Shown: positions 1 through 52,991, counted from the first letter of the stretch. The stretch: 64,000 nt of DNA from Escherichia phage vB_EcoM_WFC (NC_048195.1); one strand, 5' to 3'. The notes: generated by a model from the sequence alone, not told the origin. Numbers and translations: made by a program.

Positions 1-68
1 ATTTTAAAAACATTTATATTAATTTTTTTCATATCCTCATACTTATGTTAATTTATATATTTAACGTA

Positions 69-131
69 TTATCCGTAAGATATAAGTAAAAACAAAGACT
101 TGCGGCAATACGGATGATACGTCATGATACG
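69..131. repeat. Iteron-like repeat units (TTATCCGTA; ACGGATGATACG-TCATGATACG) in AT-rich region
   Basis: Read directly: attatccgtaag at 69-80 and atacggatgatacgtcatgatacg at 108-131; same unit family recurs at 15969-16234. Confidence 0.5.
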
Positions 132-335
132 CTTCGACCAGCCAGCAGCGGCTAAGTCATTGATTTGCATAACAAGCGGCAAAAGGGATGGATTTCTTTT
201 ATACGTATCAAACAGTACACCACGCACCACGGTCCGCAATCCACGCAGCATTATGATTTGTGTACTTTTATAGCCATAATGAACATCAATCTGCACTTGA
301 ATATAATGTCCATCCATTGTATAATTCACACTATT

Positions 336-1543
336 AATTTGCACTATGGGATTTTGCACTATGAGTCAAGATTATGTAGCGATGCCTGAAGACTTTGAAG
401 ACCCGCGATTCGCAGAGCACAATCAGGCTTTATTCGATGAGTTCATTGACCTTGTTATTCAGGGCCATGACATGCGCGCAGCTTTTGCACTAGTATTTGG
501 AATGGAAGTTGCAACGGATAACTACACTGGCCAGCGAATCCTTTGCACGCAACGCAATCCATACTACAAGATGCGCTTCAAAAAGCGTATGGAAGAGATG
601 CCACTCAAGGATTTGTGGAGCGTAAAAGGTGCAATTCACAATTTGGTCAAGCTTGTGCGTGATCCAGAAGTCGCGGCGTCAGCCAAGCTTAATGCTATTC
701 GTGAACTGAATATCATCTACGGCATCACGATGATTGATGAAAACGGCAATAGTAAAATGGGCCGTTCCATGGACGATTTCTACAAGGATTTCGGAGAGGC
801 GGCCAAAGAAGGCGAGCAATTTTCCCGCCACTAGCCAATTTGCACTATAAAACGGCCCTAGAACACATTTTCTCCACTTCTAGGGCCATCGGTAATACGA
901 CGGGGAAGGTTGCAACCATAAACGCGTTAGAAAGTGTATTATTATAAGTCATCTTTTAGTCACTTTACGTAACAATTTACGACCTTCAACCGTCCAATCG
1001 AACGACTCCACCAGCAGATTCGCACTATAACCTAAGACGATGCGCCCTTTCTCGTTATCGACCCGCCAACAAGTCTCGAATAGCATTCGATTTGCACTAT
1101 TAACTATTGCCGCAACTCGCGTAGGATAAGCGCAATTTGCACTATGGTCGTAAAGGGATAAGGTGCGACCACTTCCGATGGACAACGTAGCGATGAGAAT
1201 AAGCGTATTCATAAGCCACCAATTTGCACTATGAAAAGCGACCCCGAAGGGCCGCCATTCGATTAGATAATCTGGAAGGTATAGGACTTGTTGCCGAACT
1301 CGAAGTTCAAGCGTCCAGCTTCTTTAAGCTTCATGCGGAAGCGAATGTGCTTGCTATCCGGTAAGCCCAGCGCGGCGAACGCTACGCGGACCGATTTGAA
1401 CTCGCCTACACCCTCGACCATAACGCCGTTACGGGTAAGACGCTTTTGCGCCACTTCCTTATTATCCCAACTTTTTGCAATGCCTTCGCTATTCGAACGG
1501 CGATGGGAAGGAGTTCCATTTTGCACTACGCAATTTGCACTAT
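336..1543. repeat. Dispersed 12-bp motif AATTTGCACTAT (about 9 copies incl. variants)
   Basis: Copies read at 336-347, 351-362, 837-848, 1018-1028 (ATTCGCACTAT), 1089-1100, 1134-1145, 1221-1232, 1518-1529 (..CACTAC), 1532-1543; two tandem pairs spaced about 14-15 bp. Confidence 0.6.
346..834 (+). CDS. Hypothetical protein (162 aa)
   Basis: Six-frame ORF; alternative in-frame ATG at 361; both starts sit directly after a GCACTAT motif copy. Confidence 0.5.
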   Translation: MGFCTMSQDYVAMPEDFEDPRFAEHNQALFDEFIDLVIQGHDMRAAFALVFGMEVATDNYTGQRILCTQRNPYYKMRFKKRMEEMPLKDLWSVKGAIHNLVKLVRDPEVAASAKLNAIRELNIIYGITMIDENGNSKMGRSMDDFYKDFGEAAKEGEQFSRH

Positions 1544-1889
1544 CGTTTAAACCGCTCTTAACGAAGGCTTCATACTCTTCGTCGGTCATCGCGTCGAGTT
1601 CTTCCTGCGTCGGCTCGGCCTTTTTAACGACCGCACGCGCCTTATGCGTTTTTACATCGCTGGACACTTCCTCGCGAGACTTCGCGTCGGGGATGGGCGA
1701 TTCGTTGGACGGCTCATCGAGCGCGTTTAAGGACTCGATTAACGCTATTACGCGAGTCTCGGCGGTCCGGCGGTCCGCAAATTTTTTAATCGGCTTCGAA
1801 CCGGAATTTGCATTATAAAATGCAACGAGGTCGGCGGTCTTAGTTGCGATAACGTCGCCGCTAGTCGAGAAACGATTTAAGCTAACCAT
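1263..1889 (-). CDS. Hypothetical protein (208 aa)
   Basis: Long ORF with protein-like composition; lies in CG-dinucleotide-rich island with distinct codon usage. Confidence 0.5.
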   Translation of the reverse strand: MVSLNRFSTSGDVIATKTADLVAFYNANSGSKPIKKFADRRTAETRVIALIESLNALDEPSNESPIPDAKSREEVSSDVKTHKARAVVKKAEPTQEELDAMTDEEYEAFVKSGLNDSANCVVQNGTPSHRRSNSEGIAKSWDNKEVAQKRLTRNGVMVEGVGEFKSVRVAFAALGLPDSKHIRFRMKLKEAGRLNFEFGNKSYTFQII

Positions 1890-1969
1890 AATGAACTCCT
1901 ATTTGTTAGGGCGCTAGGCGCGAAAGAATTTTATTAAAGCGCCGCGCACGACGCTCTAAAAATCCTCTC

Positions 1970-2284
1970 TTACTCTTCGTCATCTTCGATTAATTCGAGG
2001 GCGAAGGCGTAAGCTTTGCTATCGTAATTAACTAAAACGGCGAGTTCGAACTCGTTAATAAACGCCGTTTTACCGCATAAATTTAATTCCGCATCGACTT
2101 CGAAGAATCCGTTTTCGTCGCGCTCTAAGCGAGAAGCAGCGAGTTGCTCGATTACCGTCGCGTCGTTAATTTCTTCGCCTAAGCGAACGCCGGAGAATTT
2201 CGCGAGAATTTCGCCGTAAGTAAGCGTAACGCCCTGGACTTCGGCGGTTGCGTTTTCGAGGGTAAAGCGGGTAACGATAGCCAT
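1970..2284 (-). CDS. Hypothetical acidic protein (104 aa)
   Basis: ORF ending in acidic tail EDDEE; same island composition. Confidence 0.5.
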   Translation of the reverse strand: MAIVTRFTLENATAEVQGVTLTYGEILAKFSGVRLGEEINDATVIEQLAASRLERDENGFFEVDAELNLCGKTAFINEFELAVLVNYDSKAYAFALELIEDDEE

Positions 2285-2424
2285 AATAAACTCCTAGTTG
2301 GGAGAGGCGTTAACGACCTATTCGTTAACTCATCCCGTCCCGATATGAGTACATTATAATATAGTGTAGAAAAAAGTAAAGCACTTTTTCGATAAAAATG
2401 CGATAAATTATTTTATCTTTTTTC

Positions 2425-2452
2425 TTTACTTCTTCGTACACTCGCGTATACT
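2425..2452 (+). promoter_or_regulatory. sigma70-like promoter (TTTACT-N16-TATACT) with conserved leader
   Basis: -35 TTTACT 2425-2430, -10 TATACT 2447-2452; 19-bp block CTTTACTTCTTCGTACACT identical to copy at 2823-2841. Confidence 0.4.
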
Positions 2453-2508
2453 TGTTTATATCGAGACGGGCGATGGCCCTTTCTTCTACTAGCATCGGGA
2501 GCTTTATT

Positions 2509-2811
2509 ATGACTACTTTAATCTCTTCCATCCTTACTTACGACGAAGACCGCTTAACCGTTCGCTCTCTTATCGCCGCCGTTAACGCGGAACTAGAATC
2601 TAGCGCCATTAAGGTCCGCGCGGTCGCCTTCATCGGCCTTTCCTTCGACGATATGAAGTATGCCGAACGTAGCGCCATCCGCTTCGCGAAGACCGACGAC
2701 GAAGCCGTTACCCTTATCGAGACGGTTACGCCGCGCGGCGAAGCGTTAATTATCGTCGAGTATATCGACGTAGAAGGCGATAAATCTTATAAACATTTTA
2801 TCGCAGAATAA
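2509..2811 (+). CDS. Hypothetical protein (100 aa)
   Basis: ATG at 2509 preceded by GGGAG RBS; track ORF begins at an upstream TTG (2452). Confidence 0.55.
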   Translation: MTTLISSILTYDEDRLTVRSLIAAVNAELESSAIKVRAVAFIGLSFDDMKYAERSAIRFAKTDDEAVTLIETVTPRGEALIIVEYIDVEGDKSYKHFIAE

Positions 2812-2823
2812 CGAAAAAAGTGC

Positions 2824-2852
2824 TTTACTTCTTCGTACACTAAGACTATAAT
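2824..2852 (+). promoter_or_regulatory. sigma70-like promoter (TTTACT-N17-TATAAT) with conserved leader
   Basis: -35 TTTACT 2824-2829, -10 TATAAT 2847-2852; shares TTTATATCGAGA-GGG leader element with promoter at 2425. Confidence 0.45.
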
Positions 2853-2919
2853 GTTTTATATCGAGAGGGGATGAGGTAGCGAATAGGTCGCTACCCTCCC
2901 GACTAACTAGGAGAATATT

Positions 2920-3210
2920 ATGATTACTTTAGCCGCTATCCGTTCCGCTCGCGTCGAAACTTCCGAAAACTCTAACGTATTTGGCGAAAAACTTAAAAAC
3001 GTTTATCTTTTTAACGTAGATGCGACTATCGAGGAGCTTCATAGTCCTATCGATTTTAGCGAATTTACGGAACTCGAAGAGGAAGATATTTCTACCTTCC
3101 GCGTTACTATCGAAGGCAAGGTTTATTTTGCTACGGAGTTCGGCGGCGAATATCTCGCGGTATCCGAAGGCGAAGGCCGTTACTCTTTCTTTAAAATCGT
3201 TTCCTTATAA
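2920..3210 (+). CDS. Hypothetical protein (96 aa)
   Basis: ATG at 2920 preceded by AGGAGA RBS. Confidence 0.55.
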   Translation: MITLAAIRSARVETSENSNVFGEKLKNVYLFNVDATIEELHSPIDFSEFTELEEEDISTFRVTIEGKVYFATEFGGEYLAVSEGEGRYSFFKIVSL

Positions 3211-3229
3211 TACCCATCCGTTACTAATA

Positions 3230-3255
3230 GGCCGCGCTTAGTCGCGGCTTTTCTT
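3230..3255 (+). terminator. Rho-independent terminator
   Basis: GCCGCG stem / CGCGGC with 6-nt loop followed by TTTTCTT, directly after stop at 3210. Confidence 0.6.
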
Positions 3256-3375
3256 CGTCCCTATCTCGATGCGCTTCTCCGCGAAAACTCCTTTATCCTT
3301 CCCTTCGTCGTCGCATAATCTTCGTCGAGATGCGCCTTAGTTCGCATAACAGGTATTACGTTAAATGGAGAACAT

Positions 3376-3448
3376 CGCGTAAGTCGTTGTTTTATATAGA
3401 CACCTATATCGGACCGTTAGCGAGGGTCGCGTAAGTCGTTGTTTTATA
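3376..3448. repeat. 21-bp direct repeat CGCGTAAGTCGTTGTTTTATA x2
   Basis: Identical copies read at 3376-3396 and 3428-3448 in noncoding region. Confidence 0.6.
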
Positions 3449-3573
3449 AAGGCGCAAAACTTTCCCTTCGTTCCGAACTAAAACGAGGAATATGCCGACC
3501 CTTCGCCCGAAAATAGTACGCATGCGATATTACCGACATCTAGAATAATCCCTCCCGATATTATTACGCGCTC

Positions 3574-3636
3574 AATCATTAGCTTTCGAATCATTATGCT
3601 GCATACTATTATGCGCCAAATCATTAGCCTTCGAAT
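3574..3636. repeat. 18-bp direct repeat AATCATTAGC(T/C)TTCGAAT x2
   Basis: Copies at 3574-3591 and 3619-3636 (1 mismatch); TGTAACG also duplicated at 3637-3660. Confidence 0.55.
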
Positions 3637-3909
3637 TGTAACGCTGGAAACTGTAACGTCGATTGATTATTGCGTTCGTGTGGTTTTTAGGACATGGGTC
3701 TTTTGGTGCGTTTTGCTACTTGATGGAATTTGCAGTACACTAATCAAAATACGACACATTTGGTCCACTAACTTTTCAAAGAAAAAGTCCTAGACAGTAC
3801 CGTACTATTTTGTACCCACAGGAAATTTGCCGTACACTCCTGCGCGGCAGGCAAAATAAAGGGGCCGCACTAAGCGACCCACGATTCACGGTTAAATCAG
3901 CAACACCCA

Positions 3910-4290
3910 CTATTCACTCTTATGGGCATCACCAAAGCCATCAGCAATCTGGCTGATCAACGACTCAATGGACACGGTTTTACCAATTGATCGAGCGGTA
4001 ATAGCAAGCATATTATCAATCAAACCACGATTGACTTCACATGTTCCAGGCTTTGACTCATCTTTAGGACCACCAAAAAGCTGGTCGCGCAGACTTTCAA
4101 GAGAACGCTCAATATTTTCCAACTTCTCTTCTAAATCGGATTGGCGACGTAAAACCCACGTCAAGTCACGGTTGCCAACTTCCAATCCATCAGAATAGCA
4201 AGGTGGAGCGTCAATTTTGATGCTGGAACCAAAAGCAATGCCGCTGCCTTTAGTATATGTGTGGCTAATAGAATCATTTTTATTTGACAT
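3910..4290 (-). CDS. Hypothetical protein
   Basis: Start refined to ATG at 4290 (AAAGG RBS) inside track ORF 3910-4356. Confidence 0.45.
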   Translation of the reverse strand: MSNKNDSISHTYTKGSGIAFGSSIKIDAPPCYSDGLEVGNRDLTWVLRRQSDLEEKLENIERSLESLRDQLFGGPKDESKPGTCEVNRGLIDNMLAITARSIGKTVSIESLISQIADGFGDAHKSE

Positions 4291-4469
4291 ATCATTACCT
4301 TTAATATTTGGGTGATTAACAATAACTATAATAAAGCCGCATAGCGCGGCATTCAAATCGGTTTGTTAATTGTAACGATTGAATTTACTTATCCAACCAA
4401 TCAATAAGCGCAATCATGGCTACAACAAATACTGCACTTATTGCTAATATGATCAAAAACATCACGAAA

Positions 4470-4706
4470 TCAACGTTCATCAATCGATACCAATTGTGCA
4501 GGGTCGCCGGATACAGTTGCGCCGATGATACCCATCTGAGAGAAAAATTCTGAATAAACTTCCTTCCAGTACTTGCGCGCAGCTTTCTGGGCTTGACCTT
4601 TTCGCTTGTAGCTTTTACCTTGGAAGATGAAACGGTCGTTTGCCGCGTTATATTCCACCACACCTTCCAGCCATTGTAAGAATGCTACTGATTCATTTTG
4701 ATTCAT
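4470..4706 (-). CDS. Hypothetical protein (78 aa)
   Basis: ATG at 4706 preceded by GAGG RBS. Confidence 0.5.
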   Translation of the reverse strand: MNQNESVAFLQWLEGVVEYNAANDRFIFQGKSYKRKGQAQKAARKYWKEVYSEFFSQMGIIGATVSGDPAQLVSIDER

Positions 4707-4713
4707 GTTAACC

Positions 4714-5181
4714 TCAATATTTTAATAAGAAAGCACCCAACCAACTTTCCTCAATCTCGCGGCCAGTAGCCACACGGTCGGTCTTGGCTATGGGTCTGGA
4801 TTCGCCGCAGGGCAATCCGTCCTGTAGTTGTGTACTATTGCCAATTCTCACCAGAACCTTTCCATCAGGGTCGATATAAGCGCGACAACCCATGATTTCG
4901 AGTCGTTGTAGACACTGGCGAATCGTTTTCAGCTTCTCACCGGACCGGATAGAGCGCGGTCGCGACCGCTGACCGTTCTTATTCACTGTACGCTTGAAGA
5001 CCGGAATATCATTGGTGCGTTGCGGCTTGGGTCGGTAATAAGCCTCTTCGCCAGGAGTCGCACCTGGCGTCAATTCGCGCTTGAGCGCCTTTTCAATATC
5101 AATGATCATAATTATGCCGCAGCAGCGTGAATTATTGCGTAAACAATTCCTAACAGGGCGACAACGCAAATCGTGCCCCAA
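4714..5181 (-). CDS. Hypothetical basic protein
   Basis: Track ORF; real start may be internal ATG at 5109; start uncertain. Confidence 0.4.
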   Translation of the reverse strand: MGHDLRCRPVRNCLRNNSRCCGIIMIIDIEKALKRELTPGATPGEEAYYRPKPQRTNDIPVFKRTVNKNGQRSRPRSIRSGEKLKTIRQCLQRLEIMGCRAYIDPDGKVLVRIGNSTQLQDGLPCGESRPIAKTDRVATGREIEESWLGAFLLKY

Positions 5182-5214
5182 AATGCAAAGCGCCGTGCCT
5201 CTTTATCCATTTAT

Positions 5215-5490
5215 TTATCCCCCAACGTCCATGAAATTAAACACTAATTTTGCCATGTCATCTTGTGAAAAGACACTGTAGTGTTTAGGCAAATTGCTTT
5301 CTGACAATACCTTCTGGGCTTCTTCTGCTGTCTCAAATAAAGGAATGCACCAATTAACTGCATCGCCAGATTCATTGCTATCAACTTGCTTTAAGAAAAC
5401 CAAGCGGTTATCTTCAGGATCAATACCGCAGATGACATATTTAGGCAAGGCCTTTGCTTTCTGAGCTTTATCAATATCTTCAAATTTCAT
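5215..5490 (-). CDS. Hypothetical protein
   Basis: Start refined to ATG at 5490 with GAGGTG RBS. Confidence 0.5.
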   Translation of the reverse strand: MKFEDIDKAQKAKALPKYVICGIDPEDNRLVFLKQVDSNESGDAVNWCIPLFETAEEAQKVLSESNLPKHYSVFSQDDMAKLVFNFMDVGG

Positions 5491-5544
5491 AAAACACCTC
5501 ACTTGTTAACGTATAATGAGTATAACTTAATTGCGCATAAAGTA

Positions 5545-5564
5545 AAGGCGCTTTTCAGCGCCTT
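5545..5564 (-). terminator. Hairpin downstream of tail fiber gene (putative terminator)
   Basis: AAGGCGC/GCGCCTT stem with 6-nt loop; weak T-tract on minus strand. Confidence 0.35.
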
Positions 5565-5571
5565 GAGTGAA

Positions 5572-7929
5572 TTATTTCGCTGCTTTCAGCGCGACTATCT
5601 CTGCCTCTAGGGATTCAACTTTTTTCATCAACTCCTGCACCACGTGCATAGTATCCAAAAGCATAGGCGTTGTGTCAAGTTCCTTTTGTTCAACAATCTC
5701 TCCTGGATCACTGCCAACATATTTACGCGTCTTAACATATAAAGGCTCAACAACCTCTGCTTGCTGTGCAATCACGCCATGCCGAACTCGATTTTGTTCG
5801 TCATTGTCATAAATGAACTCTACAAATTCCAGACCTTGGATATTAGAGTATGACTTTTCAACGCCAACAGGAGCGATGCCGTGTTTTACACGTGAGTCAG
5901 AAGTTCCATTTTTCGTATAGCTGAAGTTTCCATAATCCGTTGATCCATATATTTGACCATCAATGTCAAAAAAGTAACGGCAGAATTTTCCATTGTCTCC
6001 ACCGATAACTACACAGGCTATGCCAAATGCGTCATTACCTGGAATATACATGTGATATCCAACCTTTGTTGGGTATCCATTAGGTCTGGTGCCGCCGATA
6101 GAATATCCGCGCACCAGAAGATCTGAGCCGCTCGAAATGGCCACCCTGTCCATTCCGTTAGTTGTCAAGGTTGATGGATTGGCGTCAGTTATTCCATTCC
6201 ATGTGCCTAAAGGCGTATACATGCGGAATGGGTTGGTCTTCCCTGACTGTCGGAAGTCAACTGTGCCATCCTCATAGAATTTATAAGCGTGTTTTGAAGC
6301 GCCTTCTGACTCTATGACGGCGGCGTTAGAAGAACCCCATAAAGAACTTGAGTACAGACGTGCAAATTGTGATAGTGATGGGTTGCTGTATTTTGACTCT
6401 ACTTTGCCGCCGATAACCACAGTATCTACTGCTGGCGCGCTTGAATCTGCGTTTATCACACTCCACTGCGTATTTGCGGCAACAAATCCACCCGATGCAC
6501 GAATCACCCAAACGCCAACGAAGTTACGGCCCATGATTTCATCTGTTGCCGCGCCATAGATTGGACTTGAGCGTGATGCATCAATGTTGATTGTATTTAA
6601 ACGTCCCTCTACTGCGCCACTTCCAACGGGGATTGTGTCTCCAGCGCCTTGAGGATACAAATCGTTGTTTGTGTAAAAAGCACCTCGGACGGCTGTGCCA
6701 AAGATTTGCGCATAAGTACCTGCCGATACGCCTGCAGCTGAACCTGTTATGTTTGGTGCAGCGGATTCAAATATTTGGCCGTTCGCAGTCGAGTTGCCGC
6801 CGTCGCCACGCCCGTACAGCGCCCGTACAGAACCTGTTTGCACACCGTTCAGGTCTGGTACACGGAAAGTGGTTGTGCCGTTGCCCAAAGAATACTTTGC
6901 ACGTTTGAACTTATCAGCAAGCCAATCAGCATCTGCGATGGGAGAAAGCATTTGTGCATATGCCCAAAGTTCAGGCCAATCGGCACGGTTTAATAGTTGA
7001 CCGTCTGCAACGACTTCATACGGCTGGATGTATGAGCGACTATTTCGAAGGTGAAAATCACCTACGCCATAGTTCATAACACCGTTCATGCTTGGGCCGA
7101 CAGTGCCAGTGTTGACTAAGTTTTCCACCCAACGCTTTGTTGCGGCATCATAATCATTTACTGGGTCACCAGCCAGCGGCGTTGAGCCTTGTGGTCGGAT
7201 GTTAAGCCACGCCTGAGCATTGTCAGCAGAGCCAGTACCGCCCATAGAAGTAGGGACAATATTTTGATCAGCAACCGTTCCGAATCCAAAAGCAGACTTC
7301 ATGCCCTGAATGGTTGTTTGGCCTGTGCCACCATTTGCCACTGGGATGGTGCTTTGCGTACTGTACATTTGCACCCAGTCCGACCATAATGATGATCCGG
7401 CATTATATAACCTTTGGTATATGGCATTAATCCAATAAGGGGTGTATCTTTGAACGCAACTTTCTCCTGCAACGCCAGTTTTATAAACTTCAAGAATCCC
7501 GGCTTGCGCAACTGGATAATTCAAGGCTGTCGATGCCCCAGCATTGGCTGATTGGTGATATTGCCCGAACCAACTTCCAGTAAGCGCATTGAGATTTATT
7601 CCGTTAGGAATTTCTCCAAAATTACGCACGGTGTTGGTCAAGGTTGCAGCAGTAGTTCGAATGGAAAGCATGTCGCCAGCCGCCCATGCGCGCGCTGCAG
7701 TTCCTTCCTGTGCACGCTGCACGGTAAGGACGTTTCCGACCACGGCTGTTACGGTGACGATTTCGAATTGTAAGCCTGTTGCAGCGTCGACGATTGTCGC
7801 CACTACGCGCTCGTTTGCGCCCAAGGTCGGAAAGCCCGACCCTGAACGAATTGTGATGGTGGTGTCTGAAGTCGTGGTTGGCTGAGCCAGTGCGACCTCA
7901 AAGTTGTTTTTGAATATTAGCCTTGGCAT
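5572..7929 (-). CDS. Tail fiber protein with tail-collar-like motif and C-terminal intramolecular chaperone-like domain
   Basis: 785 aa; motifs TFRVPDLNG, YDAATKRWVE; Gly/Thr/Asn-rich repeats; C-terminal coiled coil ...VESLEAEIVALKAAK typical of S74-type chaperone; GAGGA RBS. Confidence 0.7.
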   Translation of the reverse strand: MPRLIFKNNFEVALAQPTTTSDTTITIRSGSGFPTLGANERVVATIVDAATGLQFEIVTVTAVVGNVLTVQRAQEGTAARAWAAGDMLSIRTTAATLTNTVRNFGEIPNGINLNALTGSWFGQYHQSANAGASTALNYPVAQAGILEVYKTGVAGESCVQRYTPYWINAIYQRLYNAGSSLWSDWVQMYSTQSTIPVANGGTGQTTIQGMKSAFGFGTVADQNIVPTSMGGTGSADNAQAWLNIRPQGSTPLAGDPVNDYDAATKRWVENLVNTGTVGPSMNGVMNYGVGDFHLRNSRSYIQPYEVVADGQLLNRADWPELWAYAQMLSPIADADWLADKFKRAKYSLGNGTTTFRVPDLNGVQTGSVRALYGRGDGGNSTANGQIFESAAPNITGSAAGVSAGTYAQIFGTAVRGAFYTNNDLYPQGAGDTIPVGSGAVEGRLNTINIDASRSSPIYGAATDEIMGRNFVGVWVIRASGGFVAANTQWSVINADSSAPAVDTVVIGGKVESKYSNPSLSQFARLYSSSLWGSSNAAVIESEGASKHAYKFYEDGTVDFRQSGKTNPFRMYTPLGTWNGITDANPSTLTTNGMDRVAISSGSDLLVRGYSIGGTRPNGYPTKVGYHMYIPGNDAFGIACVVIGGDNGKFCRYFFDIDGQIYGSTDYGNFSYTKNGTSDSRVKHGIAPVGVEKSYSNIQGLEFVEFIYDNDEQNRVRHGVIAQQAEVVEPLYVKTRKYVGSDPGEIVEQKELDTTPMLLDTMHVVQELMKKVESLEAEIVALKAAK

Positions 7930-7967
7930 TTTACGGTCCTCGTTTTGTCGACAACCGTATTATAACC

Positions 7968-8309
7968 TTAATTTCTTTTGAGAGGAATATGACGATTGCT
8001 GCCATTATTTGGTTTAATAATGAGCATAAATATGATCAAAAAGATGATGGCTGATATACTTAATTCAATCAGCGCGGCCTGAGAAATGGATTGGTCTTCG
8101 TGATATTGCTTTTGCATTTCGGCCTTCTTTTGAGCGCAAACTTCAGGCGATATATAATCACCTTTTGAATTGCCATAATAGATTTCGCCGTTTTCTGAAA
8201 TAAGGCGTCCGCAAATATCTGTTTCGGCTTTTGCGCTGGACATCATAATTACAGTTCCAATGATTGCCGCGATGGTCCAGATTAGCAGTTGTGATAAGGT
8301 GTTATTCAT
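7968..8309 (-). CDS. Membrane protein (N-terminal signal/TM and C-terminal TM)
   Basis: 113 aa; hydrophobic segments at both ends. Confidence 0.5.
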   Translation of the reverse strand: MNNTLSQLLIWTIAAIIGTVIMMSSAKAETDICGRLISENGEIYYGNSKGDYISPEVCAQKKAEMQKQYHEDQSISQAALIELSISAIIFLIIFMLIIKPNNGSNRHIPLKRN

Positions 8310-8506
8310 AATAATCTCTCTTTTAAATCCCTTCCCATTTCGGGAAGGGTAATATTATTTAACGCGGTAAAACAGACGCGTTCCACACAGCGAGTCCCAA
8401 CGGCCTTCGCCATCCCATACCGACCCAACGCCAGCGGTAATTGGGCCAGCAGAATTGGCGGCATTGGCCCAGGCTAGACGTTTCAACTTCCAACTGCACC
8501 ATCGAT

Positions 8507-8740
8507 TCACAGTTCATCTCCAGATTGCAAAATAAGACCCGCATAGAGGATTGCCAAAGCCAAAGGTGCACCACCACCAGCCTCTCTATTCTCTTTGATT
8601 TGAAGAGTATCCTTAAGGAATTGCAACTGAACGTTGAATTCATTTTCAATTCCAAGAACTCCAGCCAATTCTTTTACAGAATCTGCATATGCCTTGTCTA
8701 GCAATTCTTTTGGTACTGTTAAAGTCAATTCATTTGCCAT
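8507..8740 (-). CDS. Hypothetical protein
   Basis: Start refined to ATG at 8740 inside track ORF 8507-8758. Confidence 0.4.
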   Translation of the reverse strand: MANELTLTVPKELLDKAYADSVKELAGVLGIENEFNVQLQFLKDTLQIKENREAGGGAPLALAILYAGLILQSGDEL

Positions 8741-8951
8741 TTTCTTTCCACTCCACAAATGTGCTGCCGCTTGTTTCTCTATTTAGCAGGTATCTGCCGC
8801 GCATTCCATGAAGGCTGAATTCAACCGTCGATGGATTAGATTTTGAAAGCCATATAGGTTGTCCGTCGAATGGACCGCCTATGCATGTGTATTTAGCTTT
8901 TGGCTCACTCCTTTTGGGCCGTTTTGCCCGCTCTTTGATTGATAGTCTCAT
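8730..8951 (-). CDS. Hypothetical protein (73 aa)
   Basis: ATG at 8951 with AAGGTGA RBS. Confidence 0.4.
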   Translation of the reverse strand: MRLSIKERAKRPKRSEPKAKYTCIGGPFDGQPIWLSKSNPSTVEFSLHGMRGRYLLNRETSGSTFVEWKENGK

Positions 8952-9166
8952 CAGTCTTCACCTTGAGATTCCAGACAAGTAAGGACAAGCCACGTCATCG
9001 GAAGAATCAAAACCAGAGAAATGAGGGACCAGATAGACCAGCACAAGATGACAGACTTGAATGTGTGAACGTCGCCAAACGCAGCAGTAAAACAGAATCC
9101 CATCACAAATGCAATAGCGGTGGAATGGTTGTCTATGGCTTTTATGGCACGGTCGATGAGTTTCAT
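8951..9166 (-). CDS. Small membrane protein with two TM segments (holin-like topology)
   Basis: 71 aa; two hydrophobic helices; function not established. Confidence 0.4.
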   Translation of the reverse strand: MKLIDRAIKAIDNHSTAIAFVMGFCFTAAFGDVHTFKSVILCWSIWSLISLVLILPMTWLVLTCLESQGED

Positions 9167-9343
9167 ATTACCTCCGGTTTTGAGTTAATATGATTATAAC
9201 GCAGAGTCTCAGAAAGGCAAACTTTTTGTGAATTTTAATCAAAAAAATGGCCAGAAAAAATCTGGCCGAAAGATCACCCTTTATCCACTACTAAGCTGGA
9301 ATCATAATTTTACTTGATATAGCTTGTACAAGCAAACTATAAT

Positions 9344-10804
9344 ATGAATAAAATATTAACACATAATTGGAAATTCATGTACCAGTTGAATCCTGCTTTA
9401 AAAGAAGTCTGGAAGACAAAAGCGCGATACAAAGTAATATACGGCGGTCGTGCATCTTCCAAATCGCATGATGCCGCTGGTTTTGCTATTTATTTGGCGG
9501 CAAACTTCAAATTAAAATTCCTTTGCGTTCGACAATTCCAGAACAAGATTTCTGAATCTGTATATACTCTATTAAAAGATAAAATAGAGATTTCTGATTT
9601 TAAAGATGAGTTCAATTTATTAAAGAACTCTATCGAGCATAAAAGAACTAAATCTGAATTTCTATTTTACGGTATCGCACGTAACGTTGATGAAATTAAA
9701 TCAACGGAAGGTGTTGATGTTCTTTGGCTGGAAGAAGCGCACGCACTTACTGAAGAACAGTGGGACATTATTGAGCCGACAATCCGTAAAGAAGGGTCAG
9801 AAATATGGATCATCTTTAACCCTGATGAAGAGGCCGATTTCGTCTACCAAAACTTTGTTATGCGACCGCCGAAGAATGCCATAGTTAAAAAGATAAACTG
9901 GCAAGACAACCCATTCTTGTCGCAAACAATGCTGGATGTTATCGCAGGCATGTACGAGCGCGACCCGAAAAAGGCAGAGCACGTTTATGGCGGCGTGCCG
10001 AAGACTGGCGGCGATAAATCTGTAATCAACCGTGCATTCGTTAAGGCCGCTCTTAATCTCCACAAACACCCTACGCTGGGCTGGAGTTTGTCAGGGTCTA
10101 ACCGTATAGGCTTTGACGTAGCGGACGATGGCGACGACCTTAACGCCACTGCATTCGTCACAGGAAACGTATTGCGCGGCATCAAGACGTGGGAAGGTCT
10201 GGAAGATGAATTGTTGAAATCGGCAAGCGGAGTTTGGAAAGATGCGCTTACATTTGGCGCTTCTATAACTTATGACGCCATCGGTGTCGGCGCTTTTGCT
10301 GGTTCAAAATTTGATGAACTAAACGAGTATGCAATACATGAAAATCCATCATTTCCAAGAATCGAATTTAATGCGTTCAACGCGCAAGGGTCTGTTGATG
10401 ATCCTGATGACGTTTTTCTTGAGCTACCACACGTTGAAATACTCAATAAAGACCATTTCGCAAACATAAAAGCGCAAAAGTGGACTGAAATTGCAGAGAG
10501 ATTCAGAAAGACATACGAATATGCAACTGGGCAAGCCGTATATCCGACTGATGAATTGATTTCAATCGACACCGATGGTATACCGGAACTTGGGATTCCA
10601 GCTTGGACTACTGAAGAGATTGAGACGTTTCTTTTTGAGATGTCAGCGCCGCGCAAAGATACGTCTGTTCTTGGCAAGTTCAAAGTTGAATCTAAAAAGG
10701 ATATGGCAAAGCGTGGAGTCAAATCACCTAACAAAGCGGACGCAGCAATCATGGCATTGATGAAACCAATCGTTGCAGCATCCGGCTTCTTCTCTAACCT
10801 TTAA
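9344..10804 (+). CDS. Terminase large subunit
   Basis: 486 aa; Walker A-like YGGRASSKS, LWLEEAH, IIFNPDEE nuclease-domain-like motifs; precedes portal. Confidence 0.85.
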   Translation: MNKILTHNWKFMYQLNPALKEVWKTKARYKVIYGGRASSKSHDAAGFAIYLAANFKLKFLCVRQFQNKISESVYTLLKDKIEISDFKDEFNLLKNSIEHKRTKSEFLFYGIARNVDEIKSTEGVDVLWLEEAHALTEEQWDIIEPTIRKEGSEIWIIFNPDEEADFVYQNFVMRPPKNAIVKKINWQDNPFLSQTMLDVIAGMYERDPKKAEHVYGGVPKTGGDKSVINRAFVKAALNLHKHPTLGWSLSGSNRIGFDVADDGDDLNATAFVTGNVLRGIKTWEGLEDELLKSASGVWKDALTFGASITYDAIGVGAFAGSKFDELNEYAIHENPSFPRIEFNAFNAQGSVDDPDDVFLELPHVEILNKDHFANIKAQKWTEIAERFRKTYEYATGQAVYPTDELISIDTDGIPELGIPAWTTEEIETFLFEMSAPRKDTSVLGKFKVESKKDMAKRGVKSPNKADAAIMALMKPIVAASGFFSNL

Positions 10805-10807
10805 CAA

Positions 10808-11047
10808 TTAAAGCATTCCGTGCTGAAGGTCTAGTTTTCTTGCAGCAAATGACCTGGCACGGAATCGCTTACCCGCTCTTACTGCCTGCCGAATCTTCTT
10901 TTGCATACACTTACGGTCAAAATCGTTGCGGTCAACGGCTTCGAGCAAATCCCGACGCAAAGCACCTAGTGTCGCCTTTTCGGATAATTCTACGCCCAGC
11001 GCGGCTGCAACGTCTTTCAAAACATCGAGTTCGGTTAACGTTCTCAT
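10808..11047 (-). CDS. Hypothetical small basic protein (79 aa)
   Basis: Antisense to packaging module; 4-nt overlap with upstream ORF. Confidence 0.45.
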   Translation of the reverse strand: MRTLTELDVLKDVAAALGVELSEKATLGALRRDLLEAVDRNDFDRKCMQKKIRQAVRAGKRFRARSFAARKLDLQHGML

Positions 11048-11460
11048 TTGATGATCCCCTTGATGTCTGATTCTGCCATAAAGATTGGAGTGCCGCCGCC
11101 AGGAACAATCGAGCGCGTTACTTTGTCGAACATATCGTTCTCTTCAACTTGAATACGATAAAATTTATTTTTGGATGAAGATGGGCACAATCCAATAAAT
11201 TTACCAATGCCGCGAACGCATTCATCTTCAAAGTATACTGTTTCACCTTGAATGGATTCGATGTTTTCAACCGGATACACCTTGCGACCTAAAAGCCATT
11301 CATCCATGGTCGCCTGCAACACGTTTCGCGCATCCAAAATCCAAGGGTCAACTGTGGCACCTTCATATCGCGCAGCAGTGGCTTTTGCCAGCTCTTCATA
11401 TTCGCATACGTTTACTACTTCGCCTTGATGAAGGACGACAAATACAATTGTTGTGCTCAT
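11044..11460 (-). CDS. Hypothetical protein (138 aa)
   Basis: Antisense ORF between terminase and portal; first gene of a two-gene minus-strand cassette. Confidence 0.5.
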   Translation of the reverse strand: MSTTIVFVVLHQGEVVNVCEYEELAKATAARYEGATVDPWILDARNVLQATMDEWLLGRKVYPVENIESIQGETVYFEDECVRGIGKFIGLCPSSSKNKFYRIQVEENDMFDKVTRSIVPGGGTPIFMAESDIKGIIK

Positions 11461-11555
11461 TTCAATCTCCTTTCGTTTGGTTAACTAAAATATAACTCAA
11501 AATGATACAAAAGCAAAATATTTTATGAACTATTTATGATTACTATACATATCAT

Positions 11556-11584
11556 TTGCTTACAAACACATGAATATTTATAAT
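11556..11584 (+). promoter_or_regulatory. sigma70-like promoter TTGCTT-N17-TATAAT upstream of portal
   Basis: -35 at 11556-11561, -10 at 11579-11584; AGGTGG RBS and ATG 11623 downstream. Confidence 0.4.
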
Positions 11585-11622
11585 ATAGATTGATTCCCTT
11601 TCACTGTCAGGTGGCGTTAACA

Positions 11623-13998
11623 ATGAAAATTCTTGGCATAAAACTCTGGGAGAAGACGCAACCAGAAGCCGAACCAGCGGAGATGCCGCCAGGCGACCCA
11701 TTGGCACCGTTTGAACGCCTGGAAAGGCGCGGCAGCGGTCAACGCTGGGATAAGACCGAAAGCAACCGCCCGACCTTTAAAACCGTTGATGACTTTCCTT
11801 TATATGAGCCTGATATCAACGGGGACGGTGTTGCAATCATCAAAGGTCGCTCAGTAGATTCAGCAACCGTATCCAAAAAAGTTATGGATAATGCTTTGAA
11901 GAACATCAGTTCAGAAGGGCAGGTTAATCCATACACAGTACCTATTCAGTTGCAAAACTGGTACTTATCGCAATCATTTATCGGATATCAAGCTTGCGCC
12001 ATCATCGCGCAGCACTGGCTGGTGAACAAGGCTTGTTCCATGGTAGGCCGCGATGCGGTCCGTAAAGGCTGGGAAGTCAAATCCAGTTCTGAGTCCGAAT
12101 TATCAGTGCAGGCCAGCGAACGCCTAAAGCAAATTGATAAAGAATTTAATATCAAAGAGCACTTAGTTGAAGCCGAACGATTCAAAAATATTTTTGGTAT
12201 CCGCGTCATCATATTTGATGTGCGTAGCGATGACCCAGAATACTACAGTAAACCTTTTAACATTGATGGTGTGACAAAGGGGTCTTATAAGGGGATCATT
12301 CAGGTTGACCCTTATTGGATGATGCCATTTCTGACGTCTGAAAACACCGCCGACCCTGCTTCACAGCACTTTTATGATCCAGAATACTGGGTGATCAGCG
12401 GACAACGTTATCATCGCAGCCACCTCATCATATTGCGCAACGATGAGCCAGCTGATATTCTTAAGCCGACTTACATCTACGGCGGCATTCCTCTAACTCA
12501 GCAGATTTATGAACGCATCTATGCCGCTGAACGTACCGCTAACGAAGCACCATTGTTGGCGATGTCTAAACGTACAACGACACTACGGACCGACGTTGAC
12601 AAGGCGATTGCCAATGAGCGGTCTTTTGCCGAACGCCTGATGATGTGGATTAAGTACCGCGACAACTATGCTGTTAAGGTACTTGGCCAAAAAGAAGAAA
12701 TGGACCAGTTCGACATCAACTTGTCAGACTTCGACAGCATCATCATGAACCAGTACCAGCTGGTGGCCGCAATCGCAAAAGTTCCGTCGACCAAACTGCT
12801 TGGGACTTCGCCAAAAGGCTTTAACGCCACTGGTGAATTTGAGATGGTCAGCTATCACGAAGAGTTGGAAACGTGCCAGCAGCATGACCTGACAAAAATT
12901 CTCGACCGCCATTACAAAATCCTTCTCAAATCAGAAGGGGTGGAAGTCGACGTTAAGGTTGCATGGGAACCAGTTGGCTCACTTACTGCTACTCAACTTG
13001 CAGAAATCAACGACAAGCGAGCTAACACTGGCAAAACTCTCATTGATGCTGGCGTCATTTCTCCTGATGAAGAGCGCGACCGCATCAAAGACGACAAAAA
13101 CAGCGGTTACAACCGTCTGCCGGAAGATGCAGCAGAAGAAACCCCAGGGATGTCTCCAGAGAATATGGCATTGCTTGGCAAGTCTGCTGGTGAAGTCCTG
13201 CAAGGTAAGGCTGATATTGAACAGGCAAAAGCTGATGTCGTTAAGATGGGCGGCCAGTTCTATAGCGAGACTGGTATTATGCCAGAAGGTGCCGCGCGTG
13301 GTGAGTTGGCGGAAAACCCTGACAGAGCACCTGTCGAAATTAACATGGACGATACCGATGATGAATCAAACCATCAGGTTGATGTCCTAACGCAGTTGAA
13401 AGAAGGTCTGGAGGGTATTGCGGATTACTACCTGAAAGAAGGTCAGGATGTGGATTTTGACCCTCAAAAAGATTCACGGTCGGTGCAGCCGTCTACCCTT
13501 CCAAGCGTCAAAGGTAATGTCGTAAACTTACGACACAACGTTGGCGAGATGGACGCAGCATCATTACCTAAGATGAAGTTGCACGGAATGATTCTTGGGA
13601 TTGAGAATCCTCGCAACAGCATCCGTAGAGGAAATAGCCTTGACGGTGAATGGGCAGTCAAGATGCCGCACCACTACGGATTCATCAAAGGCACCAAGGG
13701 CGCGGACGGCGATGAAGTCGACTGCTTTGTTGGCACAAATCTGAAGTCGCCGAAGGTCTTTATCGTGAACCAAAACGATAACTACTCTGGCGAGTTCGAT
13801 GAACACAAGTGCATGCTTGGATTCGATTCAGCAGAAGAAGCAAAAGAAGCTTATCAGGCATCATTTGGTAACGGTTGGAACGGATTCGACTCAATCCACG
13901 AATTAGATGTGAACTCATTCAAAGAGTGGTTGAAGGGTGATTGCTCTCAAGCATACGGAGCACTCAATAATCCTACTAATTCACCGAAGCAAGGTTGA
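11623..13998 (+). CDS. Portal protein with C-terminal extension carrying an inorganic-pyrophosphatase-like motif
   Basis: About 790 aa; position after terminase; C-terminus has HHYGFIKGTKGADGDEVDCFV matching the family I PPase pattern D-[SGDN]-D-[PE]-[LIVMF]-D-[LIVMGAC]. Confidence 0.7.
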   Translation: MKILGIKLWEKTQPEAEPAEMPPGDPLAPFERLERRGSGQRWDKTESNRPTFKTVDDFPLYEPDINGDGVAIIKGRSVDSATVSKKVMDNALKNISSEGQVNPYTVPIQLQNWYLSQSFIGYQACAIIAQHWLVNKACSMVGRDAVRKGWEVKSSSESELSVQASERLKQIDKEFNIKEHLVEAERFKNIFGIRVIIFDVRSDDPEYYSKPFNIDGVTKGSYKGIIQVDPYWMMPFLTSENTADPASQHFYDPEYWVISGQRYHRSHLIILRNDEPADILKPTYIYGGIPLTQQIYERIYAAERTANEAPLLAMSKRTTTLRTDVDKAIANERSFAERLMMWIKYRDNYAVKVLGQKEEMDQFDINLSDFDSIIMNQYQLVAAIAKVPSTKLLGTSPKGFNATGEFEMVSYHEELETCQQHDLTKILDRHYKILLKSEGVEVDVKVAWEPVGSLTATQLAEINDKRANTGKTLIDAGVISPDEERDRIKDDKNSGYNRLPEDAAEETPGMSPENMALLGKSAGEVLQGKADIEQAKADVVKMGGQFYSETGIMPEGAARGELAENPDRAPVEINMDDTDDESNHQVDVLTQLKEGLEGIADYYLKEGQDVDFDPQKDSRSVQPSTLPSVKGNVVNLRHNVGEMDAASLPKMKLHGMILGIENPRNSIRRGNSLDGEWAVKMPHHYGFIKGTKGADGDEVDCFVGTNLKSPKVFIVNQNDNYSGEFDEHKCMLGFDSAEEAKEAYQASFGNGWNGFDSIHELDVNSFKEWLKGDCSQAYGALNNPTNSPKQG

Positions 13999-13999
13999 T

Positions 14000-14851
14000 A
14001 TGGCTTTTAAAGCTTCGAAAAAACGTGAACGCCGCTCACCCGATAGAATCGGGCGCGGCAGTCCGATAATCCCATCAAACGCTATTGCGATGGCCTACCG
14101 TCGTGAGATGAAAGGTCTTTGCTATGCGATGATTGATGACTATCAGGCAGGCATTTCAGAATGGCTTGACAAGAAGCAGGTGCAGAAGTTTTTTGCGCAA
14201 GACTCTGCTGATTCGACATTCCAGACCCTTATGAAACGGCTGCAACTGAAATGGGCAAAGGCGTTTGCACGTGTTGGGTCGAAGATTGCCGCTGATTTTA
14301 TCAAATCGGTCGAAAAGGGTGCCACTTCTGCTACATTCGCAAGCCTTAAGTCCGCAGGCATAGAAGCGCCAAAGGCCACATATAACAAATTCGTTGAGAA
14401 CACTCTTAGAACAAGCGAGAAGTTTAACACGACTCTAGTGACTAAGGTCGGCGAGGATATTCACAACAGAGTGTACGAAGCAGTCATGCTTTCGCTGACT
14501 TCTCCCGACCCAGCCCAGCAAGGCACGTCAGGCATTCAGGCGGCATTGCGAAACGTAAAACACTTCTCTGCAAAGAGAGTCGACTTGATCGCTAAAGACC
14601 AGACAAGCAAATTGTATTGCGTTCTAAGCGATGAAAGGATGCGCCAGAATGGAGTCGAAGAATTTGAGTGGGCGCACTCAGGAGCAGGAAAGGAGCCGCG
14701 AATCTCTCATGAACACGTCGACGGAATGAGATTCAAACTTGATGACAAGCGCCTATGGGAAGTTGGCGGCGAATTGAAGTTCAAAAAGGGTGACATCGGT
14801 CCTCCTGGATGGGCAATACACTGCAAGTGCAGAAAAATACCAATCATTTGA
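14000..14851 (+). CDS. Minor head / head morphogenesis protein (Mu F / SPP1 gp7-like)
   Basis: Follows portal; C-terminal ...EWAHSGAGKEPRISHEHVDGMRF... resembles MuF-like domain; start overlaps portal stop. Confidence 0.6.
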   Translation: MAFKASKKRERRSPDRIGRGSPIIPSNAIAMAYRREMKGLCYAMIDDYQAGISEWLDKKQVQKFFAQDSADSTFQTLMKRLQLKWAKAFARVGSKIAADFIKSVEKGATSATFASLKSAGIEAPKATYNKFVENTLRTSEKFNTTLVTKVGEDIHNRVYEAVMLSLTSPDPAQQGTSGIQAALRNVKHFSAKRVDLIAKDQTSKLYCVLSDERMRQNGVEEFEWAHSGAGKEPRISHEHVDGMRFKLDDKRLWEVGGELKFKKGDIGPPGWAIHCKCRKIPII

Positions 14852-15927: not shown

Positions 15928-15968
15928 ATTCATCGGCAAAGGATTGCCGCGAGTTTTATACGTATAAT

Positions 15969-16234
15969 GACGTATCATACGTATCAAGTAAGTTATTGTT
16001 TTCAAAAGAATCTTACGGATGATACGGATGATACGCGTTGCCGCCGTACTATATAGGAATTCAAATAAATTAATTTAAAATTATATATCTAATTTAATTT
16101 TATTTTTTTATAAACTCTTATATATGAAAAGTATCCGTATCATCCGTATCATCCGTAGCACACCAGTGATAGCGCGGCTTATACACCGATACGGATAAAA
16201 ATACGCCTCATTTTATCCGTATCATCCGTATCAC
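15969..16234. repeat. Inverted iteron cluster flanking about 100-bp AT-rich core (candidate origin/operator)
   Basis: TACGGATGATACGGATGATACG at 16014-16035; reverse complement at 16136-16157 and 16213-16233; variant at 15969-15985. Confidence 0.6.
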
Positions 16235-16342
16235 ACTAATAAAGGCGCGGCTATATCGGTTGTTATACATATTCAAACCATAATTATTGTTTGCCTAAGT
16301 TTTTTTCATTAGATATAATACACAATACTTATTTGAGGGTGG

Positions 16343-48814: not shown

Positions 48815-48910
48815 TTTGTTTCCTTAATTAAATATTATTGATTAATTACTGTGTTGTCTTCGTCCTGTTTCTTTTCAGGAGCGGGTGTGACAACTTCAAA
48901 TGTTCGTGAT

Positions 48911-49594: not shown

Positions 49595-49660
49595 TTATTT
49601 ATCCTTTTTTGGACTTCGTTTCGATGAGGTAAATATAACTCATCGAAACGCACAAGTAAA

Positions 49661-51336: not shown

Positions 51337-51349
51337 TTTAATTATCCTA

Positions 51350-51796: not shown

Positions 51797-51861
51797 TTTC
51801 GTTTCCTCTATGAGTTCTGCTTCAATGATTAAAGTATACGCCCATTGAAGCAGAAAGCAAA

Positions 51862-52857: not shown

Positions 52858-52930
52858 TTGTCCTTTGTGGGTGATATGAGAAGTATAATAGCTAAATTAT
52901 TTTACAGCAACAAGTCATTTCTATTTAGTA

Positions 52931-52963: not shown

Positions 52964-52991
52964 AATTACCGCTATATAACCGTCCTACAGG

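Follow-up and report, generated by a model that had tools for sequence, protein, structure and literature searches.

Blocks of early genes in terminal repeats are known from the phages T5 and SPO1 and, in part, from T7, whose terminal repeat is short. SPO1 and the Twort-like phages infect other hosts. EcoRI does not restrict T5 in vivo, and no EcoRI sites are present in its first-step-transfer (FST) DNA. Escape from an enzyme through loss of its target is also familiar from restriction-site avoidance and from ACA-less mRNAs, which resist MazF. According to its annotation, T5 may use its pre-early genes to counter host functions at a time when the remaining genome has yet to be exposed. Here we describe a block near the left end of Escherichia phage vB_EcoM_WFC (NC_048195.1), at ∼1263–3540 of the 64,000-nucleotide stretch analysed (the window, whose coordinates are used unless stated otherwise), from which the TG/CA dinucleotide step is largely missing. 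This block, the island, combines a position in a direct terminal repeat (DTR) with modular cassettes of the sigma70/T7 A1 type. Judging from the sequence, we consider it probable that it is the first to be transcribed by host RNA polymerase, and that selection keeps TG/CA out of it. We found no described precedent for an early block nearly lacking TG/CA, and our literature search turned up no account of phage early genes that exclude a dinucleotide.

The window belongs to a Wifcevirus, a PB1-like Escherichia coli myophage. Its first 8 kb match 44 records, including the Wifcevirus phages WFH, CWP003, Bas98–101, Mansfield, ECML-117 and FEC19, with the best matches mostly 90–95% identical. Wifcevirus phages are ∼68-kb E. 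coli and Shigella myophages, distantly related to the PB1-like phages of Pseudomonas (PMC11990801). In the WFH record, positions 12–3701 recur at 67594–71283 with 100% identity, and in Mansfield a DTR at 1–3673 was placed by PhageTerm. Both records are colinear with the window from base 1/12, and the window begins at the left genome end, so that its own DTR extends over approximately 1–3700 (no strand). The TG/CA-poor island lies wholly within this ∼3.7-kb repeat, and is therefore present at both ends of the genome.

The observed/expected ratio (o/e) for CA/TG is 0.36 in the island and 1.18 in the rest of the window. Over 300-bp intervals the island ranges from 0.16 to 0.51, compared with a 64-kb mean of 1.16 (standard deviation, SD, 0.20), and the 19 lowest intervals of the 64 kb all fall in 1501–3301. 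Between 1263 and 3560, 103 CA/TG are observed against 285 expected; overall, the step is depleted 3- to 7-fold in the island. The total of pyrimidine–purine steps is nearly constant (0.235 versus 0.253), with CG and TA taking the place of TG/CA: the o/e is 1.16 for TA and 2.03 for CG in the island, and 0.67 and 1.09 in the rest. In 500-bp intervals, CpG o/e is 1.99–2.27 across 1501–3500 (64-kb mean 1.12, SD 0.25), and the eight highest intervals of the 64 kb are all within 1251–3750. The Karlin delta* distance between the island and the rest is 0.25, whereas windows of the same size give a mean of 0.057 (SD 0.036). An initial annotation, made from the sequence alone, had described the genes here as CpG-rich and the block as compositionally deviant, and both descriptions hold. 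Of the sliding-window statistics that it proposed, those on dinucleotides and codons deviate extremely, while GC content does not stand out (0.42–0.52 in the island, ∼0.46 elsewhere). Its limits of 1263–3350 need some revision, since the depletion continues rightward to ∼3540, including the non-coding 3211–3560 (16 CA/TG versus 43 expected), and fades gradually leftward through the gene at 1263–1889. That gene is partly depleted (45 CA/TG versus 78 expected), and invariant Trp and His residues of its product explain some of the TG/CA that remain. At 1–700, also in the DTR, CA/TG o/e is 1.2–1.5 and there is no depletion.

The avoidance is strand-symmetric, with TG and CA avoided about equally on the sense strand for genes of both strands, and ATG/CAT is the least depleted class. 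The island contains no CTGA, GTGA, ACTG or GATC. The tetranucleotides TCGA, CGCG and CTAG are enriched, which rules out general restriction-site avoidance, and TAGG is likewise enriched. In the three genes to the right of 1889, here termed p2–p4 (the gene at 1263–1889 being p1), the codons CTG, TTG, GTG, TCA, ACA and CCA do not occur at all. The initial annotation had noted a preference for tta, atc and cgc, and this was readily confirmed: TTA makes up 41% of island Leu codons (9% elsewhere), ATC 71% of Ile codons (47%) and CGC 79% of Arg codons (38%), to which GGC, at 87% of Gly codons (42%), can be added. These odd preferences follow from the TG/CA depletion, and we take both them and the CpG richness to be by-products of the near-exclusion of TG/CA. 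The exclusion appears to override even the choice of amino acid, in that hardly any His, Gln, Cys, Trp or internal Met is left, these together accounting for 2.0% of p2–p4 codons compared with 10.2% elsewhere. A cause at the level of tRNAs or codons was ruled out, because the depletion is just as strong at codon junctions and in non-coding DNA; C|G junctions make up 28% of those in p2–p4 and 10% elsewhere.

The island is organised around a promoter–leader unit present in three copies, with pairwise identities of 41/53, 43/55 and 36/54. Two of these, ahead of the genes at 2509 and 2920, had been recognised in the initial annotation as almost identical. The repetition is real, although at 41/53 the likeness is more modest than that, and a third copy is present on the minus strand. 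A scan matched the three promoters to the sigma70 consensus at 9–10 of 12 positions. The leftward promoter (2353–2380, minus strand, TTTACT-16-TATAAT, 10/12) belongs to the third copy, which lies upstream of the gene at 2284–1970 and is 43/55 identical to the copy at 2824. The rightward promoters are at 2425–2452 (TTTACT-16-TATACT, with a predicted start at ∼2460, ATCGAGACGGG) and at 2824–2852 (TTTACT-17-TATAAT, 10/12), both on the plus strand. All three −35 hexamers read TTTACT, and thus lack the TG and the CA of the consensus TTGACA. Long inverted repeats (2282–2346 and 2858–2922) reflect leaders that are shared up to the start codon, and the start context TAGGAG/GGGAG-N5–7-ATG is common to all four genes.

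Seven nucleotides past the −10 hexamer, the units read ATCGAGAGGG, ATCGAGACGGG or ATCGGGACGGG. In the unit at 2824, positions 2860–2869 (ATCGAGAGGG) are identical to T7 498–507, which is +1 to +10 of the A1 transcript, and in both cases 7 nt separate the −10 from +1. The leader at 2860–2919 (plus strand) is predicted to form a 5′ hairpin, GGTAGCG-AATAGGT-CGCTACC, at 2864–2904, followed by the Shine–Dalgarno sequence TAGGAG; its fold energy is −21.3 kcal/mol (z = −2.3). The leader of the leftward unit (2300–2344, minus strand, predicted start at 2344, ATCGGGACGGG) has a similar candidate hairpin, GTTAACG-AATAGGT-CGTTAAC, suggested by sequence, folding and compensatory changes. A comparable 5′-terminal hairpin is thus predicted for two island leaders and for the T7 A1 leader. 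The loop region GCGAATAGGTCGC is kept while the stems vary (GGTAGCG/CGCTACC, GTTAACG/CGTTAAC, GGAAGCG/CGCCTTCC, and GGGCG/CGCCC in a Serratia phage), and in the leader alignment 4 of 12 pairs show compensatory changes. A search of window positions 1–4500 against Rfam gave no match.

The rightward units are closed by an intrinsic terminator at 3229–3250 (plus strand), which the scan resolved as an 8-bp stem with six GC pairs and a T-run, and which is annotated in WFH and Mansfield; this is the clean terminator placed near 3230 by the initial annotation. A second intrinsic terminator, at 1238–1255 (minus strand), closes the leftward early unit. It consists of GCGGCCCTTCGGGGTCGC followed by TTTTC, and the WFH annotation has a terminator at these coordinates, although the consensus scan did not list it. 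The module therefore appears to be under its own, probably early, transcriptional control, as had been suggested; promoters, leaders, ribosome-binding sites, terminators and the DTR position all point this way. Beyond the right-hand terminator, the TG/CA-poor stretch at 3251–3589 (minus strand) is non-coding in WFH, and carries a promoter-like site at 3589–3560 with ATCGGGAGGG at 3559; a 39-aa open reading frame (ORF) is annotated here in Mansfield. Possibly, the TG/CA-poor 3251–3553 is a decayed fourth leftward unit. Cassette content differs among isolates: some have a p4 paralog in place of p2 or lack p2, and some have an additional 50-aa ORF or 69-aa ‘regulator’. In phage F13 (3892–4310 of its record), a tandem duplication bounded by promoter–leader units carries one unit and a 3′ fragment of p3. 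The repeated units thus appear to serve as recombination points for the shuffling of cassettes.

In the initial annotation, the block was suggested to be a moron gained by horizontal transfer; on this view it would retain the differing dinucleotide signature of its donor. The extreme compositional distance, the possession of its own promoters and terminator, and the variable cassette content would all fit. The histories of the genes themselves do not. The p1 gene (1263–1889, minus strand, 208 aa) encodes the counterpart of PB1 gp80 (phrog_4730, E = 6e-89), and tblastn found homologs in 354 phage records, of which 295 are Pseudomonas phages. In the Pbunavirus records examined, the homolog is at the matching position (PB1 gp80, Ab27 ORF02). 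Because of these family-wide homologs at a matching position, p1 is best regarded, from sequence, as ancestral rather than imported. It shares 37% identity with PB1 gp80, and 44% with a copy in Serratia phage KKP 3709 located outside the island of that phage. The C-terminal half gives non-significant matches to winged-helix-like folds, and p1 is possibly a DNA-binding protein.

The other three products are small and acidic: p2 (1970–2284, minus strand, an ORF annotated in WFH) has 104 aa and a net charge of −15, p3 (2509–2811, plus strand; 9 CA/TG versus 38 expected) has 100 aa and −7, and p4 (2920–3210, plus strand) has 96 aa and −10. In Mansfield and F13, a 94-aa p4 paralog takes the place of p2. 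The p4 protein is hypervariable, with 58–100% amino-acid identity among relatives. By tblastn against the phage collection, p3 and p4 were found in each of the 27 Wifcevirus-type records that matched and in no other record. Searches of 5.8 billion clusters, and an exhaustive hidden Markov model profile search of 1.8 billion representatives, added only the 94-aa paralog and one 103-aa homolog, with no p3 or p4 homolog outside this clade and hence no donor lineage for either. Thus, the homology searches proposed in the initial annotation place p1 in a large family, while p2–p4 have no Pfam or PHROG family, with at most weak Pfam matches (E ∼0.1–0.2). The only strong PHROG matches were to phrog_4730 and phrog_4783, both of unknown function; homologs of T5 A1, A2 and dmp were not found in the Pfam/PHROG search, and the small acidic proteins showed no sequence or fold similarity to Ocr or ArdA. 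The block has the promoter and terminator of a moron without sporadic insertion between adjacent genes, and the atypical composition of a horizontally transferred island without an identifiable donor or decay with divergence. We therefore regard import as decidedly unlikely, and the claim of a horizontal acquisition is not supported.

Related islands in other phages bear on the same question. Around the p1 homolog, Pbunavirus DNA has normal CA/TG and no island, and there is likewise no depletion around the p1 homologs of an Aeromonas and a Salmonella relative. In Serratia phage KKP 3709 (Myosmarvirus) there is an island of 1.6 kb (CA/TG o/e 0.14–0.28, CpG o/e 1.8–2.3), containing a promoter–leader of the same family (GCTTTACT...TATAAT...TTTATATCGAAACGGG), an AATAGGT hairpin, two acidic proteins, a terminator and a second, depleted p1 paralog. 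The p1 copy outside that island is of normal composition, so the constraint follows position and not protein. In MyoSmar (Myosmarvirus), the island (300–1800) lies within a PhageTerm DTR of 1–3559, the remainder of which (2100–3559) has a CA/TG o/e of 1.3–1.7. Pantoea phage Kyle (Kylevirus) has an island near the left end of the record (CA/TG o/e 0.13–0.57) with the same promoter family, and encodes there a 94-aa protein with a net charge of −18 and no His, Gln, Cys, Trp or internal Met.

The most extreme case is an uncultured contig (L151), reached through the 103-aa p4 homolog, in which the order of genes is unchanged and the island has a CA/TG o/e of 0.03–0.13 and a CpG o/e of 2.5–2.8. Its 103-aa and 125-aa genes contain one CA/TG each, the start ATG, where 37 and 46 are expected. 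Between the predicted transcription start and the terminator, the density of TG/CA is 0.008/bp, compared with 0.055/bp between the divergent promoters and a background of ∼0.147/bp in the 64-kb window; TG/CA return within the T-tract of the terminator. Depletion thus matches the transcription units of L151 while promoter flanks tolerate TG/CA, which suggests that the passage of RNA polymerase, or the integrity of the transcribed DNA or RNA, matters. Across the depleted lineages, the shared proteins are just 33–44% identical. Despite this divergence, depleted islands with the same promoters recur within the Myosmarvirus DTR and close to the left end of the Kyle record, which again argues against a moron. 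TG/CA-poor genomes from which a block could have come do exist, although those known (CA/TG o/e 0.53–0.7, CpG 1.5) are far milder than the islands (0.03–0.35). They came to light in an IMG/VR pattern scan with TTTATATCGANANGGG, which gave mostly chance matches. It exposed unrelated contigs, moderately depleted genome-wide (L113, L130, L031, L044, L102 and others; CA/TG o/e 0.53–0.72, CpG ∼1.5), with a GC content of 35% in one and 55–57% in a group.

Because four Enterobacterales lineages retain the depletion, it is likely that some important factor reads TG/CA during the opening minutes of an infection. The scheme that we favour for the Wifcevirus island is as follows. Host RNA polymerase would transcribe the block once either genome end enters the cell. 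Each cassette consists of a sigma70 promoter, a T7 A1-type initial sequence with a 5′ hairpin, a strong ribosome-binding site and one small gene. The p1 protein is conserved family-wide, and p2–p4 are small, acidic and fast-evolving, so that roles in host takeover or anti-defence would suit them. More speculatively, and with considerable doubt on our part, these early units would need to be free of the 2–3-nt target of a TG/CA-directed activity present in the first minutes. Candidate agents would be a nuclease, or else a modification, carried by the injected DNA, that impedes host RNA polymerase; protection of the remaining genome would then fall to island products or to functions expressed later by the phage.

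Several observations weigh against this reading. The term immediate-early is drawn from the promoter consensus, the likeness to T7 A1 and the position in the DTR, and the first-expressed status of the small acidic proteins (net charges −15, −7 and −10 in 96–104 aa) is likewise deduced. None of p2–p4 has a Pfam, PHROG or fold match that gives a function, and profile searches of the PDB for function gave no match. A Glf-like oxidoreductase, part of a putative nucleotide/sugar-metabolism cluster, also occurs in Pbunavirus, which lacks the island. Avoidance of TG/CA leaves most type II palindromes intact, with TCGA, CGCG and CTAG in excess. Promoter DNA in the window has just ∼2 times the TG/CA density of transcribed DNA, and the leaders do hold a few TG/CA. 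Sites for EcoRI, EcoRV, EcoKI and EcoBI are absent from the DTR (0, versus 19, 6, 5 and 11 in the window), but with ∼2.3 expected in total their absence from 3.7 kb is not significant alone and at most suggestive.

Polymorphism among 16–18 Wifcevirus sequences adds to these points. Among transitions, the proportion of minor alleles that create TG/CA is 0.37 where 0.415 is expected, which is near neutral, and in the island core alleles creating TG/CA outnumber those destroying it by 95 to 27. Either any selection acting today is weak at each single site, or slow decay of the island is under way in Wifcevirus; the 95:27 excess also looks like the amelioration expected of an imported moron. On the other side, transversions creating TG/CA are reduced (0.15 versus 0.25, p = 0.0014), the sole class to be so, and minor alleles creating TG/CA are skewed to singletons (Fisher p = 0.007), at 49% versus 33–36% in the remaining classes. 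Between two alleles of p4, 85 of 291 nt (29%) are different, and yet the alleles contain only 6 and 8 CA/TG, where random substitution would give 17–26 (P < 0.003), a retention of depletion through deep divergence that a relic of import would not be expected to show. The singleton skew, the p4 alleles and the persistence at 33–44% protein identity thus disfavour a fading signature of import. Most economically, the data can be read as a persistent selective filter that is weak per site, akin to selection on codon usage, and the exclusion is more plausibly upheld by selection on early transcription units than derived from a donor. Divergence within a TG/CA-poor gene pool followed by repeated import is a conceivable alternative.

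A regional bias in mutation or repair, acting through heteroduplex correction of annealing terminal repeats or through transcription-associated mutagenesis of a very heavily transcribed block, might also convert TG/CA into CG and TA. Strand symmetry and the inclusion of non-coding DNA are what such a process would produce, biased conversion would also give the low-frequency skew of TG/CA-creating alleles, and location in a DTR, which would have to pair with its twin in each cycle, is suggestive. However, the DTR is depleted only in part, both in the window (1–700) and in MyoSmar (2100–3559), and these outer parts exclude a simple DTR-wide repair bias. The edges of depletion in L151 coincide with the terminator and the predicted transcription start, and transcription-associated deamination would be strand-asymmetric. 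Very short patch (VSP) repair would deplete CTAG and TAGG, the opposite of the enrichment seen here, and we know of no E. coli repair pathway that converts TG/CA into both CG and TA. We consider a bias of this kind quite unlikely.

The match between depletion and transcript, running in L151 from the predicted start to the terminator with TG/CA present in the DNA between promoters, also invites a constraint on RNA: early mRNAs might need to lack UG and CA in order to survive an early ribonuclease or to drop alternative starts (AUG, GUG, UUG). The promoter flanks in the window, which contain TG/CA (GTGCTTTACT and TATAATGT), fit this idea. Yet the sense strand is about equally poor in UG and in CA, which is natural for a step in double-stranded DNA and would need two specificities at the RNA level; we know of no RNase with UG and CA specificity. 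That ATG/CAT is the least depleted class rules out avoidance of start codons, and the TTTACT hexamers have lost the TG and CA of TTGACA. An RNA-level constraint is therefore rather unlikely, and a reader at the DNA level is favoured because of the strand symmetry and the TG/CA-free −35 hexamers. Returning to a selectively maintained immediate-early block, it is possible, if somewhat less than an even prospect, that the exclusion of TG/CA from its units amounts to a hitherto undescribed, sequence-encoded immunity to an activity specific for 2–3 nt, the first DNA or RNA of these phages being composed in a reduced alphabet. Such an activity could be a host defence, the phage's own host-shutoff nuclease or a modification of virion DNA, the last of which would also account for the broad restriction resistance of Wifcevirus.

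Several other features of the genome touch on the DTR or on possible DNA modification. Wifcevirus phages resist almost all restriction systems tested, by a protection mechanism that is not known (PMC11990801). The DTR contains five EcoP1I sites, and its site pattern, with EcoP1I present and the other four absent, parallels the published resistance to the tested systems except EcoP1_I, in keeping with a scheme like that of T5 and T7. The synthesis paper on vB_Eco4M-7 (PMC11074155) contains nothing on repeats or modification. Near window 48–53 kb (colinear with Mansfield 48355–53083 and record L009 40556–45284), a gene cluster is annotated as encoding glyoxalase-family, short-chain dehydrogenase, HAD phosphatase, ThyX and UDP-galactopyranose-mutase-like oxidoreductase proteins, and could represent a DNA- or nucleotide-modification pathway. 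A link between the island and this possible modification cluster was considered and, on the gene compared, rejected: the Glf-like oxidoreductase is conserved across the family, including the island-less Pbunavirus, and does not correlate with the island.

In the left part of the DTR, ATTTGCACTAT occurs in nine copies with at most one mismatch at 337–1816, all on the plus strand, overlapping minus-strand genes and with two copies inside p1. There are none elsewhere in the 64 kb; ∼2 are expected, and 0 of 100 shuffles reached nine. These could be packaging, terminase or regulator sites. The array adjoins a gene, also inside the DTR, for a 157-aa protein (361–834, plus strand, phrog_4783), which the Mansfield annotation gives as the small terminase subunit (HHpred). 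Near the right edge of the DTR, at 3375–3451 and 3558–3647, TCGCGTAAGTCGTTGTTTTATA occurs twice and there is also a 45-bp tandem pair with CATTAGC...TTCGAAT; a comparable ATTAGC repeat field lies 3′ of the island in L151 (7230–7600). Just beyond the DTR, GGAA(A)TTTGC(A/C)GTACACT is found twice, at 3725–3741 and 3823–3838. The GTACACT of these copies also occurs in the spacer of two island promoters, the third having CTACACT, and is one of the few CA-containing words kept inside the island. Arrays of GATACGGATGATAC / ATCCGTATCATCCGTATC repeats on both strands occupy 15950–16240, in a long AT-rich intergenic region ahead of the head genes, with a related copy at the genome end (100–130), and might mark an origin or a regulator-binding region. 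CpG-rich patches at ∼15.9–16.3 kb and 38.6–39.0 kb were considered as further islands and rejected as ordinary intergenic repeat/promoter regions.

Identifying what reads TG/CA could reveal a new principle of defence or counter-defence, a new DNA modification or a new mechanism of host shutoff. It could also explain the broad restriction resistance of Wifcevirus, for which no protection mechanism is known (PMC11990801). On the practical side, the cassettes offer compact expression units of the T7 A1 type, and immediate-early genes of related phages could be located computationally by the simple criterion of their TG/CA-free signature.

Compared with described systems, the closest parallel in the control region is T7 A1. 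Both have sigma70-type hexamers, a start 7 nt after the −10, the same +1 to +10 (ATCGAGAGGG), a GCGAATAG loop motif and a 5′ hairpin design, and both lie near the entering genome end upstream of a small acidic first gene (ocr in T7). The differences are that the island −35 is TTTACT and that of T7 TTGACT, that the island has three copies of which two are divergent, and that it lies within a 3.7-kb repeat whereas A1 is beside a short one. Moreover, CA/TG is normal in the T7 early region (1.0–1.35), and the downstream genes are not homologous.

As in the pre-early region of T5, the putative early genes here are located in a long direct terminal repeat; that of T5 enters first and is transcribed by host polymerase. 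The freedom of the island DTR from sites for EcoRI and other enzymes parallels the lack of EcoRI sites in the T5 FST DNA. In contrast, the bias of the T5 repeat is mild (CA/TG 0.73–1.15, CpG 1.0–1.8). Within T5, CpG o/e in the repeat (1–10219 of record L153) is 1.0–1.8, versus 0.46–0.87 in the adjoining unique DNA (10220–14000), a milder step in composition at a comparable boundary. The SPO1 host-takeover genes and the Twort-like long-terminal-repeat genes are similarly clustered, numerous small genes of unknown function, with strong host-type promoters and ribosome-binding sites, in a terminal redundancy, in which, to our knowledge, no dinucleotide exclusion has been reported. With morons the island shares an autonomous promoter–gene–terminator unit and an atypical composition, but it is not inserted between conserved genes, is shared by all matching relatives and by sister genera, and holds a family-wide gene. 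It has in common with target-motif avoidance, whether of restriction sites or of ACA in mRNAs facing MazF, the idea of escaping an enzyme by lacking its target, although the avoided word here is a single dinucleotide step, confined to one 2-kb block in which type II-like palindromes are enriched. By analogy, and without protein homology, the island would thus work like T7 A1 combined with the terminal-repeat pre-early regions of T5 and SPO1.

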